A stretch of DNA of 5,243 nucleotides. Origin: a virus (Duplodnaviria > Heunggongvirae > Uroviricota > Caudoviricetes). Each line of letters opens with the position of its first letter. Within the stretch, counting starts at the first letter, position 1. The position numbers and the translations under genes are program-made. The notes beneath the pieces were generated by a model that worked only from the letters and a program-made list of their open reading frames with translations, ran no database searches and was not told the origin of the DNA. The stretch is taken from positions 1 through 5,243 of the IMG/VR virus record IMGVR_UViG_2671180556_000001; one strand, given 5' to 3'. Of the stretch, positions 1 to 5,243 are shown piece after piece.

Positions 1-123
1 AAGGCCAGCATGACTGAGCTTATCGAAATCATGTTCTGGTTCGGCTCAGAGCGCAACGTGCGGTGGAGTGATGACTCCTGGCGAGAGTATGAATGGTCAC
101 AACGAAAAGGGAGAGCTGCATGA
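1..123 (+). CDS. 3' end of an upstream gene, truncated by the window edge (frame 1 reads ...[37 protein letters not shown]); possibly ninB-like by position
   Basis: Frame 1 is open from position 1 to a TGA at 121-123, which overlaps the next gene's ATG at 120-122 (ATGA junction). The ninB assignment rests only on typical nin-region gene order, not on recognised sequence. Confidence 0.4.
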   Translation, partial: KASMTELIEIMFWFGSERNVRWSDDSWREYEWSQRKGRAA

Positions 124-647
124 CTATCAAATCAAATACGCCATCACACGACAAGGACTGCTGGCAAACGCCGCTTTGGCTTTTTGATGCACTGGATATT
201 GAGTTTGGATTCTGGCTGGATTCAGCTGCGAGCGACAAAAATGCTCTGTGCGCTCACTGGCTAACTGAGGCCGACGACGCGCTAAATTCTGAGTGGATAA
301 GCCACGGTGCAATCTGGAATAACCCACCGTACAGCAATATCAGGCCGTGGGTGGAAAAAGCCGCTGAGCAGTGCATACAACAGCGACAGACGGTAGTTAT
401 GCTTGTGCCAGAGGATATGTCAGTCGGATGGTTCAGCAAGGCTCTGGAGAGTGTCGACGAAGTTCGCATTATCACTGATGGACGGATTAATTTTATCGAA
501 CCATCGACAGGGCTGGAGAAGAAGGGAAACAGCAAAGGCTCCATGCTGCTGATTTGGCGACCGTTCATCAGTCCTCGACGAATGTTTACTACTGTATCCA
601 AAGCGGCATTGATGGCGATCGGGCAGGGCGTCAGGATGGCGGCATGA
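120..647 (+). CDS. Phage DNA N6-adenine methyltransferase (Dam-type orphan methyltransferase)
   Basis: The translation contains the catalytic NPPY motif (IWNNPPYSN) typical of N6-adenine methyltransferases, and the overall size fits the small phage Dam family. A GGGAGAG Shine-Dalgarno lies 6-7 nt upstream of the ATG at 120; the track's in-frame ATG at 93 lacks an RBS, so 120 is preferred. Stop is TGA at 645-647. Confidence 0.8.
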
Positions 648-826
648 GGCGACAGCGAAGAAGTATCACCGACATCATCTGCGAAAACTGCAAATACCTT
701 CCAACGAAACGCTCCAGAAATAAACGCAAGCCAATCCCAAAAGAATCTGACGTAAAAACCTTCAACTACACGGCTCACCTGTGGGATATCCGGTGGCTAA
801 GACATCGTGCGAGGAAAACAAGGTGA
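644..826 (+). CDS. ninE: NinE protein (60 aa, lambda nin region)
   Basis: The ATG at 644-646 overlaps the methyltransferase stop (ATGA). The product [60 protein letters not shown] matches my recollection of lambda-family NinE. The track ORF 554..826 is the same frame with a spurious N-terminal extension. Confidence 0.75.
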
Positions 827-916
827 TTGACGCGATGATTTATTCGGGGCTATATTCCTCACGCGCCAGCAAAATCTGGCGTCGGGATTAGCACCCCGGA
901 TATCGAAACGGTGCAT

Positions 917-937
917 AACCGCGCTGGCGGTTTTTTT
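917..937 (+). terminator. Candidate rho-independent terminator downstream of ninE
   Basis: Perfect 6-bp stem AACCGC (917-922) / GCGGTT (927-932) with a 4-nt loop GCTG, followed by a T run through 937. Confidence 0.5.
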
Positions 938-1101
938 ATGCGCTAAGCACAGTCACATTCGCGATTTATGGCGGGCTGTGTGGGGGAGCCGAAAGGCTCG
1001 CCGGATGTTTCGACCGGTAGTGCTAACCCCGCACAGTTCGCCACCACGATGATTAGCACCTGACGGTGGCGAGGTAAAAATTATCGAAACGCGAGGTCAT
1101 T

Positions 1102-1779
1102 ATGGCTGTTCAAATTTCTGTCGAAAACCTTTCCCCTGTTACCTATAACCAGATCCCCGTAATTACTACTGAACTGTTGGCTCACCTTTACGGAACAAAA
1201 ATCAAAAACATTTCTGATAACTTTCTGAACAACACGACGCGATTCATGCCCGGAAAGCATTACTTTAAAATTGAAAAAAACGAATTACGCGAGTTTAAGA
1301 ACAGACCCGAAACAATCGGGTTAGTTGGTAAAAATGCCCGCTCCCTCATCCTCTGGACAGAACGCGGCGCAGCCCGTCACGCAAAAATGCTCGAAACCGA
1401 TCAGGCGTGGGATGTGTTCGAAAAACTGGAAGACTGCTATTTCAGCCAGTGCGAGAAAAATACTGGCAAACAAGAGAAGAAGCTCAACGGGCTTTCCGCA
1501 AAAGAAACAGACAGCCTTGTATGGCTGTGGGATTATGCCAACCGCTCACAGGCATTGTTCCGTGAGTTGTATCCCGCATTAAAACTGATTCAGTCTGGCT
1601 ATTCCGGCATATGCCACGACTACGGCTATGAGTTCTCGTATATCATCGGGAGGGCGAGAGACGTTTTAATCAATCACACACGAGATGTTGATATTAATGA
1701 GCCAGACGGACCAACGAATCTTTCCGCATGGGTAAGGCTTAAGAACAAAGAATTACCTCCTTCACTACATCGCTACTGA
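1102..1779 (+). CDS. ORF6N/KilA-N-like domain protein (putative phage DNA-binding regulatory protein)
   Basis: 225-aa ORF with a GAGGT Shine-Dalgarno 5 nt upstream of the ATG. The N-terminal region ([16 protein letters not shown] ... [14 protein letters not shown]) resembles the ORF6N domain signature as I recall it. The C-terminal half is unassigned. Confidence 0.65.
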
Positions 1780-1796
1780 CAATTGACAACTTAACA

Positions 1797-1820
1797 AACC
1801 CAGCTTCGGCTGGGTTTTTT
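1797..1820 (+). terminator. Candidate rho-independent terminator after the ORF6N gene
   Basis: 8-bp stem AACCCAGC (1797-1804) / GCTGGGTT (1809-1816) with a TTCG tetraloop, running into a T tract that ends at 1820. Confidence 0.6.
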
Positions 1821-1853
1821 ATTGGTGAATTTTCAATATGAGAGGACATGACA

Positions 1854-2576
1854 ATGAACGAGCTGATAAATAGCAACGTCATCAAAATGACCAGCATTGA
1901 AATCTCTGAGCTTACAGGTAAGCGTCATGACAATGTGAAACGTACTATCGAAATGCTGGCTAAAAATGGTGTTATCCGACATCCTCAAATTGAGGATTGT
2001 GGAAGAATCAATGGGTTAGGCTTAAATCAAAGTTTTCGTGTGTATGTATTCGAAGGCGAACAAGGTAAGCGAGACAGCATTATTGTCGTTGCCCAGTTGT
2101 CGCCGGAATTCACCGCTCGTCTTGTTGACCGTTGGCGAGAGCTTGAAGACGCTGCGGTTAATATCCCCAAAACTCTACCAGAAGCGTTGCGCCTTGCTGC
2201 TGATCTTGCTGAGCAGAAAATGCAACTGGAAAACCAGCTCGCAATTGCCGCACCTAAAGTTGAGTTTGCCGATCGCGTTGGCGAGGCCAGTGGAATTTTG
2301 ATTGGAAACTATGCAAAGGTTGTTGGTATTGGTCCAAACAAACTGTTTGCGTGGATGCGCGAACACAAAATCCTTATTGCTTCAGGTTCCCGGCGCAATG
2401 TGCCAATGCAGGAATATATGGATCGCGGCTATTTCACAGTGAAAGAAACAGCGGTCAATACAAATCACGGAATACAGATATCGTTCACCACAAAAATCAC
2501 CGGGCGTGGTCAACAGTGGCTGACCAGAAAGCTGCTCGATAACGGAATGCTGAAAGTAACAGGGGAGGCTGCTTAA
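1854..2576 (+). CDS. Phage antirepressor-family protein (N-terminal Rha regulatory domain, C-terminal KilAC/Ant domain)
   Basis: The N-terminus carries the Rha-family motif ([22 protein letters not shown]) and the C-terminal half resembles antirepressor KilA-C domains ([14 protein letters not shown]...). GAGAGGA at 1840-1846 sits 7 nt before the ATG at 1854, whereas the track's ATG at 1848 is only 1 nt from it, so 1854 is preferred. Stop is TAA at 2574-2576. Confidence 0.8.
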
Positions 2577-3181
2577 TGGCTAAACCAGCGCGAAGGAAAT
2601 GCAAAATATGCAAGGAATGGTTTCACCCGGCATTCTCAAATCAGTGGTGGTGCTGCCCGGAACACGGAACTCAATTAGCACTCGAACGACGAAGTAAAGA
2701 ACGCGAAAAAGCGGAAAAAGCAGCAGAGAAGAAACGACGACGAGAGGAGCAGAAACAGAAAGATAAACTGAAGATTCGAAAACTCGCCTTAAAGCCCCGC
2801 AGTTACTGGATTAAACAAGCCCAACAAGCCGTAAACGCCTTCGTCAGAGAAAGAGACCGCGACTTACCATGTATCTCGTGCGGAACGCTCACGTCTGCTC
2901 AGTGGGATGCCGGACATTACCGGACAACTGCTGCGGCACCTCAACTCCGATTTGATGAACGCAATATTCACAAGCAATGCGTGGTGTGCAACCAGCACAA
3001 AAGCGGAAATCTCGTTCCGTATCGCGTCGAACTGATTAACCGCATCGGGCAGGAAGCAGTAGACGAAATCGAATCAAACCATAACCGCCATCGCTGGACT
3101 GCCGAAGAGTGCAAGACCATCAAGGCGGAGTATCAACAGAAACTTAAAAAACTGCGAAATAGCAGAAGTGAGGCTGCATGA
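2576..3181 (+). CDS. ninG: NinG (Rap) recombination protein, a Cys-rich structure-specific endonuclease family
   Basis: 201-aa product with Cys clusters ([10 protein letters not shown]...WCCPEHG; CISCG...[11 protein letters not shown]) and a basic Lys/Arg-rich linker, matching lambda NinG in size and features. The start overlaps the previous stop (TAATG) and is preceded by AGGGGAGG. Confidence 0.8.
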
Positions 3182-3849
3182 ATATCTACGAAAGAATTGA
3201 TGGCAGCAAATACCGAAATATTTGGGTAGTTGGCGATCTGCACGGATGCTACACGAACCTGATGAACAAACTGGATACGATAGGATTCGACAACAAAAAA
3301 GACCTGCTCATCTCGGTTGGCGATTTGGTTGATCGCGGTACAGAGAACGTCGAATGTCTGGAATTAATCACATTCCCCTGGTTCAGAGCTGTACGTGGAA
3401 ACCATGAGCAAATGATGATTGATGGCTTATCAGAGCGTGGAAACGTTAATCACTGGCTGCTTAATGGCGGTGGCTGGTTCTTCAATCTCGATTACGACAA
3501 AGAGATTCTGGCTAAAGCTCTTGCCCATAAAGCAGAAGAACTTCCGTTAATCATCGAACTGGTGAGCAAAGATAAAAAATATGTCATTTGCCACGCCGAT
3601 TATCCTTGTAACGAATACGAATTTGGAAAGCCAGTTGATCCTCTGCAGGTAATCTGGAACCGCGAACGAATCGGCAACTCACAAGACGGGATCGTGAAAG
3701 AAATTAAAGGCGCGGACACGTTCATCTTTGGTCATACGCCAGCAGTGAAACCACTCAAATTTGCCAACCAGATGTATATCGATACCGGCGCAGTGTTCTG
3801 CGGAAACCTCACATTGATTCAGGTACAGGGAGAAGGCGCGTGGGCATAA
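3178..3849 (+). CDS. Serine/threonine protein phosphatase (lambda phosphatase-like metallophosphoesterase)
   Basis: Metallophosphatase signature motifs are visible: GDLHG, GDLVDRG and GNHE. The N-terminal sequence ([35 protein letters not shown]) is close to lambda protein phosphatase as I recall it. The ATG overlaps the ninG stop (ATGA). Confidence 0.9.
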
Positions 3850-4328
3850 GAGAACTAAACCTCACCAAAGAACAGCACGAGTGGCTGAATGGCTGGCTTG
3901 AACTGTGGGGCGCATGGGTTTATTCAGGTCGTCTGGAAAAGCGCATGAGCAGCGTAATAGCGAAGTTCATGGAGAGCGTAGAGCCGGGAAGAGTTATGAC
4001 AAGGCCAATGTGTAATGATGATGATGGAATGTTGATTTCTCAGGTCGTCGATTCCGTCATGTACATTGACAAGAAAGCCTTCGGCATCCTCCTCAGCTAC
4101 TACGCTCATGGTTCTTCCAGGCACGCCATTGCATCTTACTATCATCGCGTCGCAAGACCTCGCAAGATGTTATGCCGGGGCGGCGGGCGCATTCAAAAAC
4201 CATCGCTCGCAACCTGTCGACGGGAAGTTGACGAAATCCTTAATGCCTCGTTGTTTATGATTTACCCGGTTCTGGATAGTGCGTTTAAAAACCGGAAACG
4301 TGTAGAGAAAATTAAACATGTAGCATAG
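3840..4328 (+). CDS. Q: Late-gene antitermination protein Q (non-lambda Q family, phage 82/21/Stx-phage type)
   Basis: The product carries the N-terminal LWGAWV motif that I recall from the small Q antiterminator family, and the gene sits directly upstream of a candidate late promoter. GGGAGAAGG at 3828-3836 precedes a GTG start at 3840, overlapping the phosphatase 3' end by 10 nt. The start is uncertain; the next in-frame ATG is at 3945. Confidence 0.7.
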
Positions 4329-4330
4329 AA

Positions 4331-4373
4331 CGTGTTGACATCATTGAGCAAATGAGCAACACTATTGGCATAA
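4331..4373 (+). promoter_or_regulatory. Candidate Q-dependent late promoter (pR'-like) and Q-engagement region
   Basis: A consensus -35 hexamer TTGACA lies at 4335-4340, just after the Q stop. I could not place a convincing -10 hexamer at 16-18 bp spacing (TATTGG at 4363-4368 and TAAGCT at 4371-4376 are at non-canonical spacing). The call rests on position plus the -35 match. Confidence 0.35.
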
Positions 4374-4418
4374 GCTGCCGTTAGTGACTCTTAAGTTGCA
4401 ACGGTGGCTTTTTTATTT
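4374..4418 (+). terminator. Candidate tR'-like intrinsic terminator
   Basis: 9-bp stem GCTGCCGTT (4374-4382) / AACGGTGGC (4400-4408) including two G-U pairs, a large 17-nt loop, then TTTTTTATTT (4409-4418). Confidence 0.45.
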
Positions 4419-4493
4419 GGGTCAGTCGTATAAAGGTCATTACGGAAGGCTGTTAACCTTCTTATCGTGGTTCGAGTCCACGCTGTCCCGCCA
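4419..4493 (+). tRNA. tRNA-Asn(GUU)-like gene, 75 nt including encoded CCA
   Basis: Manual cloverleaf: acceptor GGGTCAG/CTGTCCC (one T-T mismatch at pair 4-69), U8, D arm GTAT-AAAGGTCA-TTAC with G18/G19, perfect anticodon stem GAAGG/CCTTC with loop CTGTTAA (anticodon GTT), T arm CGTGG-TTCGAGT-CCACG, discriminator G, CCA. The anticodon loop and T loop resemble E. coli tRNA-Asn as I recall it. Confidence 0.55.
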
Positions 4494-4498
4494 AACAT

Positions 4499-4574
4499 GC
4501 TGGTTTAGCTCCAATGGTAGAGCAACTGACTTGTAATCATCAGGTCGCCAGTTCGATTCCGGTAGCCGGCACCA
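4499..4574 (+). tRNA. tRNA-Thr(UGU)-like gene with imperfect stems, 76 nt including CCA; possibly divergent or a pseudo-tRNA
   Basis: Acceptor GCTGGTT/AGCCGGC (7 pairs, two G-U), U8, canonical D arm GCTC-CAATGGTA-GAGC, anticodon loop CTTGTAA (anticodon TGT), T loop TTCGATT, discriminator A, CCA. The anticodon stem (ACTGA/TCATC) has only 3 Watson-Crick pairs and the T stem (GCCAG/CCGGT) has one A-C mismatch. Confidence 0.5.
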
Positions 4575-4577
4575 TAT

Positions 4578-4652
4578 GCGGGTACCGTATAATGGCTATT
4601 ACCTCAGCCTTCCAGGCTGATGATGCGGGTTCGATTCCCGCTACCCGCTCCA
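4578..4652 (+). tRNA. tRNA-Gly(UCC), glyT-like, 75 nt including CCA
   Basis: Perfect 7-bp acceptor GCGGGTA/TACCCGC, D arm GTAT-AATGGCTA-TTAC, perfect anticodon stem TCAGC/GCTGA with loop CTTCCAG (anticodon TCC), perfect T arm GCGGG-TTCGATT-CCCGC, discriminator T, CCA. The sequence is nearly identical to enterobacterial tRNA-Gly2 (glyT) as I recall it. Confidence 0.8.
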
Positions 4653-4665
4653 GATTTATTATCAG

Positions 4666-4688
4666 GCTCGCTTCGGCGGGCTTTTTTT
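4666..4688 (+). terminator. Rho-independent terminator after the tRNA cluster
   Basis: 6-bp stem GCTCGC (4666-4671) / GCGGGC (4676-4681) with one G-U pair and a TTCG tetraloop, followed by seven T (4682-4688). Confidence 0.6.
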
Positions 4689-4740
4689 GTATCTGCGTTA
4701 CACCATTAACTAATAAATCGAGTGCTTATCAGGAGGCTAT

Positions 4741-4965
4741 GTGAAAAAGCTGATGGTGACGATTGGTCCGTTCGAAACAGAAGTTAGTTTTCGTGTCGTT
4801 CAGGGGGAGAGTGTACTTGTTGAAGATGTATTTCATGGAAAATCAACAGGTCCTTATGTAAAAGAATATTTTGTCGACGCCACGGATGAAAATATTGAGG
4901 TGGTGTACGATTCCGTCAATCACCCTAATTTGATCATTAAGGCAAAATTGAAACCACTTTATTGA
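4741..4965 (+). CDS. Hypothetical small protein (74 aa), unknown function, in the cargo position downstream of the late promoter
   Basis: ORF with AGGAGG at 4731-4736 and a GTG start at 4741 (short 4-nt spacer); stop TGA at 4963-4965. I recognise no motif in the product. Confidence 0.5.
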   Translation: MKKLMVTIGPFETEVSFRVVQGESVLVEDVFHGKSTGPYVKEYFVDATDENIEVVYDSVNHPNLIIKAKLKPLY

Positions 4966-5017
4966 TCTGAGCGGGAGCAATCATAAAATATCTCTGGGTA
5001 CCCATAAGGAGATAAAT

Positions 5018-5227
5018 ATGTTTGTTGCTGAAGGGGTAATGGAAGATAAGGACAACAAAGGATGTGTTAAAGGTTGGGCTGTGGTAAGAAACTCGCCATG
5101 GCATCTTGTTGGGGTTTTTGCGACAGAGGAAGACGCGGAAATGGAAGCAAGAAAGACGGGAGATGAGTACGAGGTTCACTATGGCTCGCATCGAACAGGA
5201 AGTGATGATTTTGTCTGGGGGGAGTAA
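5018..5227 (+). CDS. Hypothetical small acidic protein (69 aa), unknown function
   Basis: Strong Shine-Dalgarno AAGGAG 7 nt upstream of the ATG at 5018; stop TAA at 5225-5227. The C-terminus is acidic (EEDAEMEARKTGDEYE). I recognise no confident family. Confidence 0.6.
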   Translation: MFVAEGVMEDKDNKGCVKGWAVVRNSPWHLVGVFATEEDAEMEARKTGDEYEVHYGSHRTGSDDFVWGE

Positions 5228-5243
5228 CAGTCGTTTAACCCCA

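Follow-up and report, generated by a model that had tools for sequence, protein, structure and literature searches.

A recombinant tRNA cassette at the predicted start of the late operon of a phage 21-type lambdoid prophage

Why should the late operon of a lambdoid phage appear to open with genes for tRNA-Asn, tRNA-Thr and tRNA-Gly? The question is raised by positions 4419-4652 of a 5,243 nt stretch of caudoviral DNA (IMG/VR record IMGVR_UViG_2671180556_000001, positions 1 to 5,243), referred to at its full length as the window, where three tRNA genes are packed together downstream of the gene for the antiterminator Q. The trio is real, has already been annotated in public records and is largely explained by known biology: judging from the sequence, it is a recombinant tRNA cassette opening the late operon of a phage 21-type lambdoid prophage. 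What is new here is that the tRNA-Thr is chimeric, and that its host-derived part has an anticodon arm of the Escherichia coli gene thrU that is phage-restricted, occurs only as a double mutant and matches a published rule for escape from the nuclease OLD.

The three tRNA genes and their setting

Genes for tRNAs were sought with the Rfam covariance model RF00005, which has a gathering score of 29 bits, and with ARAGORN as an independent predictor. Rfam gave three matches on the + strand, each over the threshold and needing only the addition of the discriminator and encoded CCA to reach the full gene spans: a tRNA-Asn(GUU) of the phage 21 type at 4419-4493 (55.3 bits at 4419-4490; G73), a tRNA-Thr(UGU) at 4499-4574 (49.0 bits at 4499-4571; A73) and a tRNA-Gly(UCC) at 4578-4652 (55.4 bits at 4578-4649; U73). 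The Asn and Thr genes are separated by AACAT (4494-4498), and the Thr and Gly genes by TAT (4575-4577); the genes, coordinates and 5 nt and 3 nt spacers described in a first-pass annotation of the window were thereby confirmed. Its anticodons (GTT, TGT and TCC for the Asn, Thr and Gly genes respectively) and isotypes agree with ARAGORN, with the Rfam alignments and with public annotation, which together rule out other isotypes and the standard ileZ-argN-argO cluster; neither ARAGORN nor Rfam found an Ile, Arg or Lys tRNA in the window. ARAGORN, which that annotation had put forward as a check, bore out the Asn and Gly genes and missed the Thr gene between them. Public annotation of this middle gene is likewise divided, NCBI calling it tRNA-Thr where the record is identical to the window but omitting it in a variant with U68. 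Each phage copy scores below its host counterpart with RF00005 (asnT 72.6, thrU 73.8 and glyT 64.9 bits), and the tRNA-Thr of phage 21 (Thr21) scores 61.5 bits. The features that we take to be aminoacylation identity elements are nonetheless in place: GUU and G73 in the Asn gene; G1-C72, C2-G71, G35 and U36, for ThrRS, in the Thr gene; and U73, G1-C72, C2-G71, G3-C70, C35 and C36 in the Gly gene.

Upstream lies the gene for a phage 21-type Q antiterminator (3840-4328, + strand; Pfam Phage_antitermQ, E = 3e-24), the product of which is identical to phage 21 Q at 161 of 162 positions. Alignment to the annotated features of phage 21 places the late promoter pR' and the Q-binding element (ATTGAGCA / AATGAGCA at 4343-4358) at 4335-4371 on the + strand; across the -35, Q-binding element, -10 and start site there is a single substitution relative to phage 21, with the start near 4370. 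The tR' terminator and late leader follow at 4372-4418 (+ strand), matching the annotated phage 21 and Sf6 terminators. They correspond base for base to phage 21 tR' except for a T-run shorter by one T, and end exactly at the 5' end of the tRNA-Asn (4418/4419). On the other side, a terminator scan detected an intrinsic-terminator-like hairpin, consisting of an 8 bp stem and then a T-run, at 4664-4690 (+ strand), which closes the conserved tRNA block; both of the flanking terminators proposed in the first-pass annotation therefore stand. A consensus scan of 4250-4800 found no independent promoter for the tRNAs, a weak negative because the same scan also missed the known pR'. On this arrangement, the three tRNAs are apparently the genes with which the Q-dependent late transcript begins: lying downstream of tR', they would be transcribed when Q drives RNA polymerase to read through that terminator.

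The same slot, downstream of Q, pR' and tR' in the lambdoid late operon, is presumably the one occupied by ileZ-argN-argO in Shiga toxin (Stx) phages, and the trio had at first been regarded as standing in place of that usual Ile/Arg/Arg set. This comparison does not hold. The Stx phage cluster accompanies another Q family and has other isotypes, the window being without Ile2(CAU) or Arg tRNAs, whereas the Q gene here is that of phage 21. Where this Q occurs, as in phage 21, Sf6, BTP1 and SfI among others, its module usually has genes for tRNA-Asn and tRNA-Thr in the slot, and hence the appropriate comparator for this Q type is Asn and Thr rather than ileZ-argN-argO. Indeed, the SfI genome paper described Thr and Asn tRNAs downstream of Q in Sf6, ST64T, PS3 and p21 (PMC3636060). 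The late operons of phage 21 and Sf6 resemble the window in the position of the tRNAs, in Q (99%), and in matching promoter, Q-binding element and terminator; their tRNA-Asn is identical at 75 of 75 nt, and their tRNA-Thr over its first 26 nt. From nt 27, however, the tRNA-Thr of the window is derived from thrU, and beyond it lie a tRNA-Gly derived from glyT and a terminator unlike theirs.

Positions 4380-4700 are 100% identical to Escherichia phage JLK-2012, in which tRNA-Asn, tRNA-Thr and tRNA-Gly are annotated, as they also are in RefSeq E. coli genomes. The first 197 nt of this query, comprising the leader, the Asn gene and the 5' part of the Thr gene, match about 100 phage records at about 91%, including phage 21, Sf6 and BTP1. 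Among 5426 complete E. coli genomes, 13 have the whole trio, most of them O55:H7, and 347 have the complete phage 21 Asn-Thr pair; the trio is a rare recombinant of a common phage 21-type cassette.

A chimera of two tRNA-Thr genes

Alignment of the middle gene with its closest relatives divides it into two parts. Nucleotides 1-26 (4499-4524, + strand) have no mismatches to Thr21, and seven to both host thrU and a prophage variant of thrU carrying G42U and U43C (window 4540-4541). By contrast, nt 27-76 (4525-4574, + strand) have 19 mismatches to Thr21, four to host thrU and two, A49G and U68C, to the variant. The crossover falls within the 9 nt sequence GGTAGAGCA, common to both parents (nt 18-26, window 4516-4524). 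The middle tRNA is a natural chimera of Thr21 and the prophage thrU variant; a complete Thr21 is not present in the window, where only its nt 1-26 are matched. U68C need not be a compensatory change that followed the recombination, as some thrU-like donors already have G5-C68.

The source of the 3' part is suggested by what follows it. In the host the operon order is thrU-tyrU-glyT-thrT, and a shortened version, thrU-TAT-glyT, without tyrU, is found in phi467, vB_EcoS-683R6, the LT-IIb phage and many prophages; in phi467, both the thrU and glyT copies are identical to the K-12 genes. The window shares the gene order and TAT spacer of these cassettes, among which are copies from Shigella and O157 (PMC4539685), and its Thr nt 27-76 and Gly gene are near-identical to theirs, all being derived from the host operon minus tyrU. 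It differs in that they keep the 5' half of thrU and mostly a wild-type anticodon stem, whereas the window has the 5' half of Thr21, the G42U/U43C arm, and U8C and A38G in the Gly gene. Hence a thrU-glyT cassette fits the last 50 nt of the Thr gene, the spacer and the Gly gene, and fails only over the first 26 nt, where there are seven mismatches. The Gly gene itself is identical to K-12 glyT at 71 of 75 nt, the differences being the compensatory pair C6U/G67A, U8C (at 4585) and A38G (at 4615); by this comparison it evidently derives from host glyT and arrived together with the thrU variant. Separately, the D arm of the tRNA-Asn, GUAU-AAAGGUCA-UUAC (4419-4443), resembles that of glyT, GUAU-AAUGGCUA-UUAC (cf. 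4578-4602), the U13-U22 mismatch included.

The pattern of mismatches and the existence of thrU-TAT-glyT cassettes show the window cassette to be a recombinant of the phage 21 Asn-Thr pair and a thrU-glyT pair, joined inside the Thr gene. A phage 21 module comprising Q21, pR'/qut, tR', Asn and Thr21 recombined with a prophage thrU-TAT-glyT cassette at that point. The block has since moved between backgrounds: in 21 sequences carrying the hybrid, 4374-4697 is conserved within mosaic surroundings, any of three Q alleles lying upstream of it and one of several sets of genes downstream.

The anticodon stem and the constraint on each gene

The anticodon arm of host thrU has ACUGA at nt 27-31 and UCAGU at nt 39-43, forming five pairs that include the motifs CUG (28-30) and CAG (40-42). 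The hybrid has the same ACUGA at nt 27-31 but UCAUC at nt 39-43, leaving three pairs; A27-C43 and C28-U42 are mismatched, and only the 3' CNG motif is altered, with CUG at 28-30 and CAU at 40-42. Its loop, CUUGUAA, presents the UGU anticodon with A37, and the cloverleaf otherwise has a regular D stem and the A52-C62 mismatch in the T stem that is also found in thrU. G42U/U43C additionally creates a tandem UCA-UCA (window 4526-4543, Thr nt 28-45), and the 5' CUGA can pair in two registers; the slipped one restores a paired CUG/CAG motif three nt further from the loop.

All 2.9 million viral contigs of IMG/VR were scanned for the context GCAACTGACTTGTAATCA-NN-AGGTC, in which NN represents nt 42-43. 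The wild type (GU) was found in at least 116 contigs and double mutants in 29 (27 UC and two CC), whilst none of the contigs had a change at nt 42 alone or at nt 43 alone. These double mutants span at least seven sequence backgrounds and several cassettes. Eleven viral contigs have the UC arm in otherwise thrU-like genes, for instance in related Ile2(CAU)-Arg(UCU)-Thr-Gly arrays, where ARAGORN does call a tRNA-Thr. Amongst GTDB species representatives, one genome per species, the UC allele was found once, on a 7 kb E. albertii contig resembling a prophage fragment. Outside the hybrid, the variant is seldom encountered among complete E. coli genomes (about six of them have it), and wild-type thrU-TAT-glyT is common there, matching at 6494 places in 5421 genomes. 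Named GenBank phages held no exact copy of the variant allele outside the hybrid, the best non-hybrid match being wild-type thrU at 97.6%.

The 21 hybrid-carrying sequences also allow the variability of the genes to be compared, although as they are not independent samples the comparison can only be suggestive. None of the 120 sites of the leader plus Asn gene varies, nor does any site of the tR'/leader region 4372-4418, and just one of 76 does so in the hybrid Thr: nt 68, which is C or U, either of which pairs with G5. The Gly gene varies at six of 75 sites and the terminator region at nine of 45. Minority changes in the Gly gene include G53C, A7-C66 and G39U, and every copy has A38G, which permits a C32-G38 pair, plus either U8C or G10A. 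This distribution suggests that the Asn and hybrid Thr genes are maintained whilst the Gly gene drifts; its changes give the Gly copy the look of a passenger on which constraint has relaxed.

Conceivably, the hybrid Thr, with possibly the Gly, is a recombination scar, a non-functional by-product of mosaicism beside a tRNA-Asn that alone works. In favour of this, the hybrid has an anticodon stem of three pairs, an acceptor stem containing two G-U pairs, C14 and an Rfam score down to 47-49 bits; ARAGORN passes over it and NCBI leaves it out in the U68 variant, and the Gly gene has accumulated its variable sites on top of A38G and U8C or G10A. Yet a scar would not be expected to vary so much less than the neighbouring Gly gene and terminator region, nor to have spread behind three Q alleles and ahead of several downstream contexts. 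Both halves come from functional or conserved tRNAs, and Thr21, which shares the unusual 5' half, is functional in vivo; the variant arm has been retained in at least seven backbones, and the presumed ThrRS identity elements are all present. We accordingly regard the scar as an improbable explanation.

Codon supply, defence nucleases and the wider locus

Two functions come into question for the cassette, the first being the decoding of rare codons. Codon usage in the annotated genes of JLK-2012 (13,765 codons) was compared with that of 42 K-12 genes from a 50 kb sample (14,748 codons). Among Thr codons, ACA makes up 22.7% for the phage and 10.2% for the host (Fisher p 3e-11); among Gly codons, GGA makes up 18.8% and 7.8% respectively (p 8e-14), and GGA and GGG together 41.7% and 19.8%. 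In the K-12 sample no Thr codon is used less than ACA and no Gly codon less than GGA, and each of the two is enriched about 2.3-fold in the phage. The initial opinion that none of the three tRNAs decodes a rare codon was consequently wrong for Thr and Gly; the accompanying doubt about codon supply was sound for Asn, which has no rare codon, and AAC forms a smaller share of Asn codons in the phage than in the host (50.9% against 63.3%; p 3e-5). Since ACA and GGA are both rare in the host and enriched in the phage, codon supply probably does make a genuine contribution in the case of Thr and Gly. It explains neither the Asn gene nor which tRNAs were chosen: AGA (12.6% of Arg codons against 2.3%; p 4e-17) and AUA (18.5% of Ile codons against 4.2%; p 3e-21) are far more enriched than ACA or GGA, yet JLK-2012 has no tRNA for either.

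In its purest form, this explanation would have the cassette do nothing but lift the supply of tRNAs for ACA and GGA/GGG, with all differences from the host genes representing neutral drift. Besides the codon shares above, it can draw on the same ACA bias having been reported for phage SfI (PMC3636060), on thrU-glyT copies that do not differ from the host genes being common in prophages, and on such copies having been read as compensation for codon use in Shigella and O157 (PMC4539685). Neutral drift does not explain, however, why nt 42-43 are altered only in tandem in viral contigs, and it also counts against this reading that wild-type thrU protects barely or not at all against OLD when Thr21 does. 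As the sole explanation, it is in our view unlikely, if still a serious contender.

The second function, escape from nucleases, was raised by the first-pass annotation in the form of protection against tRNA-cleaving host defences, and for the parent of the middle tRNA the idea has gained direct support in print. P2-OLD kills through cleavage of the thrU tRNA of the host, in which nt 28-30 and 40-42 form paired CNG motifs that are cut behind their C (PMC12445682). Phage tRNA-Thr(UGU), that of phage 21 being explicitly included, rescues cells from it (Govande et al. 2025, PMC12445682), whereas wild-type thrU gives little or no protection (PMC12445682). Resistance and rescue were shown experimentally for tRNA-Thr6 and Thr21, and a tRNA resists only when alteration of the CNG is combined with shortening of the stem, either alone failing; in Thr6 the changes are G30C/C40G plus U43A (PMC12445682). 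The Gly tRNA is not mentioned in the main text of that study (PMC12445682). Like Thr6 and Thr21, the hybrid combines a UGU anticodon with an altered CNG and a shortened anticodon stem; unlike Thr6, it does so through G42U/U43C, which leaves three pairs and the 5' CUG, and its resistance is a prediction from sequence. The pair of substitutions fits the two-factor rule because it alters the CNG and shortens the stem at once, and the absence of single mutants agrees with this.

A second nuclease of this kind is AriB of PARIS, which targets tRNA-Lys(UUU) as well as tRNA-Thr(UGU) and, secondarily, tRNA-Asn(GUU), cutting U36AAUC|A41 (Belukhina et al. 2025, PMC12409363). Cleavage is abolished by U39A and, in tRNA-Lys, impaired by U16C, and the Lys, Thr and Asn variants of T5 jointly neutralise PARIS, the tRNA-Lys(UUU) being necessary (PMC12409363). 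PARIS protects against lambda (PMC9122126), and HepS of Gifsy-1 likewise cuts Thr tRNAs (PMC13043305). The anticodon arm of the window Asn, GAAGG-CUGUUAA-CCUUC, has C39 and U41 and lacks a CNG on either strand, where host asnT has U39 and C41 with CGG/CCG; at nt 36-41 it reads UAACCU, and asnT UAAUCC. It is thus without the AriB site and without both CNG motifs. As with the T5 set, U39 has been replaced (by C39 here and by G39 in T5), and two of the three tRNAs that AriB attacks are represented in the cassette. At the same positions Thr21 has UAAGCG, T5 Thr UAAGCA and T5 Asn UAAGUU, all with G39, whereas the hybrid Thr has the UAAUCA of thrU, although A16 replaces U16 in its D loop. Among phage thrU copies, many (e.g. 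the AGCAGGCA D-loop variants) carry U16C, the change that impairs AriB on tRNA-Lys (PMC12409363).

The mechanism that these comparisons suggest is that defence nucleases of the Toprim family, among them P2-OLD and AriB of PARIS, destroy host tRNAs by cutting the anticodon stem, and that the hybrid, having lost its 3' CNG and retained only a 3 bp stem, and the phage Asn, without a CNG or an AriB site, would escape. The same tRNAs would also raise decoding capacity for ACA, and the Gly, having come along with the thrU variant, would at best add to decoding of GGA/GGG. The tRNA-Asn counts towards this reading, being without a rationale in codon supply and yet invariant in the 21 sequences. For Asn and Thr, we consider the case for an anti-nuclease mechanism to be evenly balanced. 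Rather more tentative, and somewhat short of an even chance, is the broader proposition that the G42U/U43C allele of thrU, confined as it is to phage and prophage DNA, is a naturally selected escape variant against OLD-family Toprim anticodon-stem nucleases, here grafted onto the 5' half of Thr21, and that the arrays following Q in lambdoid phages are modular counter-defence, put together through recombination within tRNA genes, as opposed to codon supply.

Several observations weigh against nuclease escape. With regard to the hybrid itself, ARAGORN rejects it and its 49 bits fall well under the scores of both thrU and Thr21. It retains the 5' CUG, and its sequence UCAUCAGG permits a slipped 4 bp helix (nt 28-31 with 42-45) closing a 10 nt loop, which by nearest-neighbour energies is about 2.9 kcal/mol more stable than the canonical 3 bp register; energies were calculated for fixed registers, as unconstrained minimum-energy folding was uninformative, giving no cloverleaf for host thrU itself. 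The hybrid, unlike the window Asn, has no substitution at the AriB determinants U39 or A41 and keeps the complete site UAAUC|A. Because the parental Thr21 had G39, resistance to PARIS may have been lost on recombination; by this comparison, the exchange may have kept or gained OLD-type resistance while surrendering the PARIS-type change of Thr21. Unlike the T5 set, moreover, the window has no tRNA-Lys(UUU), which is needed to neutralise PARIS. The Gly gene keeps both CNG motifs, and its U8C and A38G fall at normally conserved positions.

Other difficulties concern the supposed selective agent. P2 old is present in only 17 of the 5426 E. coli genomes, which rules it out as a common one, and the relevant nuclease, if any, more likely belongs to a wider OLD- or PARIS-like set. 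JLK-2012 does encode Gam, the trigger of P2-OLD, but Gam is an early protein, and late expression behind tR' is indicated for the tRNAs by their position. Furthermore, most prophage thrU copies are wild type, hence nuclease-sensitive, which implies that codon supply alone can drive acquisition.

The pairing of Thr with Gly might instead point to a defence that strikes both tRNAs at the acceptor stem. The toxSAS FaRel2, which selects tRNA-Gly and tRNA-Thr through acceptor base pairs 1, 2, 4 and 5 (bioRxiv 10.1101/2024.07.05.602228), was all that a literature search for a nuclease specific to tRNA-Gly(UCC) yielded, and Thr(UGU) and Gly(UCC) do co-occur in many phage cassettes, T5 having both. 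FaRel2 is not an E. coli system, though. Both tRNAs of the window have kept pairs 1, 2 and 4 as they were, and the Gly acceptor stem departs from glyT solely at pair 6-67. The adjacency of Thr and Gly is more simply explained by descent from the host thrU-tyrU-glyT operon, and a countermeasure of this type is very improbable.

Phage cassettes also contain backbones with switched anticodons (L009:1122-1197; L022:2795-2866; L011:7057-7133). These comprise a thrU backbone with UCU, annotated as tRNA-Arg, in the LT-IIb phage; a glyT backbone with UAC and G38, called as tRNA-Val; and an argO-like backbone with UUU, called as tRNA-Lys.

Elsewhere in the window, Rfam detected isrK at 863-937 (76.6 bits), a C4 antisense RNA at 964-1048 (75.1 bits) and a c4-a1b1 target element at 850-902 (50.6 bits). 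These RNAs, at 850-1048, sit just upstream of two open reading frames (ORFs) for antirepressor-like proteins (1102-1779 and 1848-2576), one with ORF6N and P22_AR_C domains and the other with Rha and KilAC domains, and the whole looks from its sequence like an antisense-controlled antirepressor module of the P1 immI or Gifsy isrK type, situated in the nin region. Directly after the tRNA block, in the slot of stx in Stx phages, are two small ORFs at 4741-4965 (74 aa) and 5018-5227 (69 aa), neither of which matches a Pfam family; strain Z1323HEC0393 has this pair too, with the annotation of hypothetical proteins.

The locus demonstrates that the mosaic recombination of lambdoid phages can cross inside a tRNA gene, giving a chimeric tRNA. 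For annotation, it means that the slot following Q21 usually contains Asn and Thr, and that the hybrid is missed by ARAGORN and, in the U68 variant, by NCBI. That phage tRNAs act as decoys or replacements for those targeted by nucleases is a recent idea, tested mostly with the virulent phages T5 and T4 and with cloned libraries, and a temperate phage here offers a test case that arose naturally. The hybrid joins the D-arm side of a tRNA of validated resistance, Thr21, to a host-derived arm with just two substitutions, which match the two-factor rule for OLD. The missing single mutants lead to the prediction that G42U or U43C alone would not be protective, whereas the pair would be.

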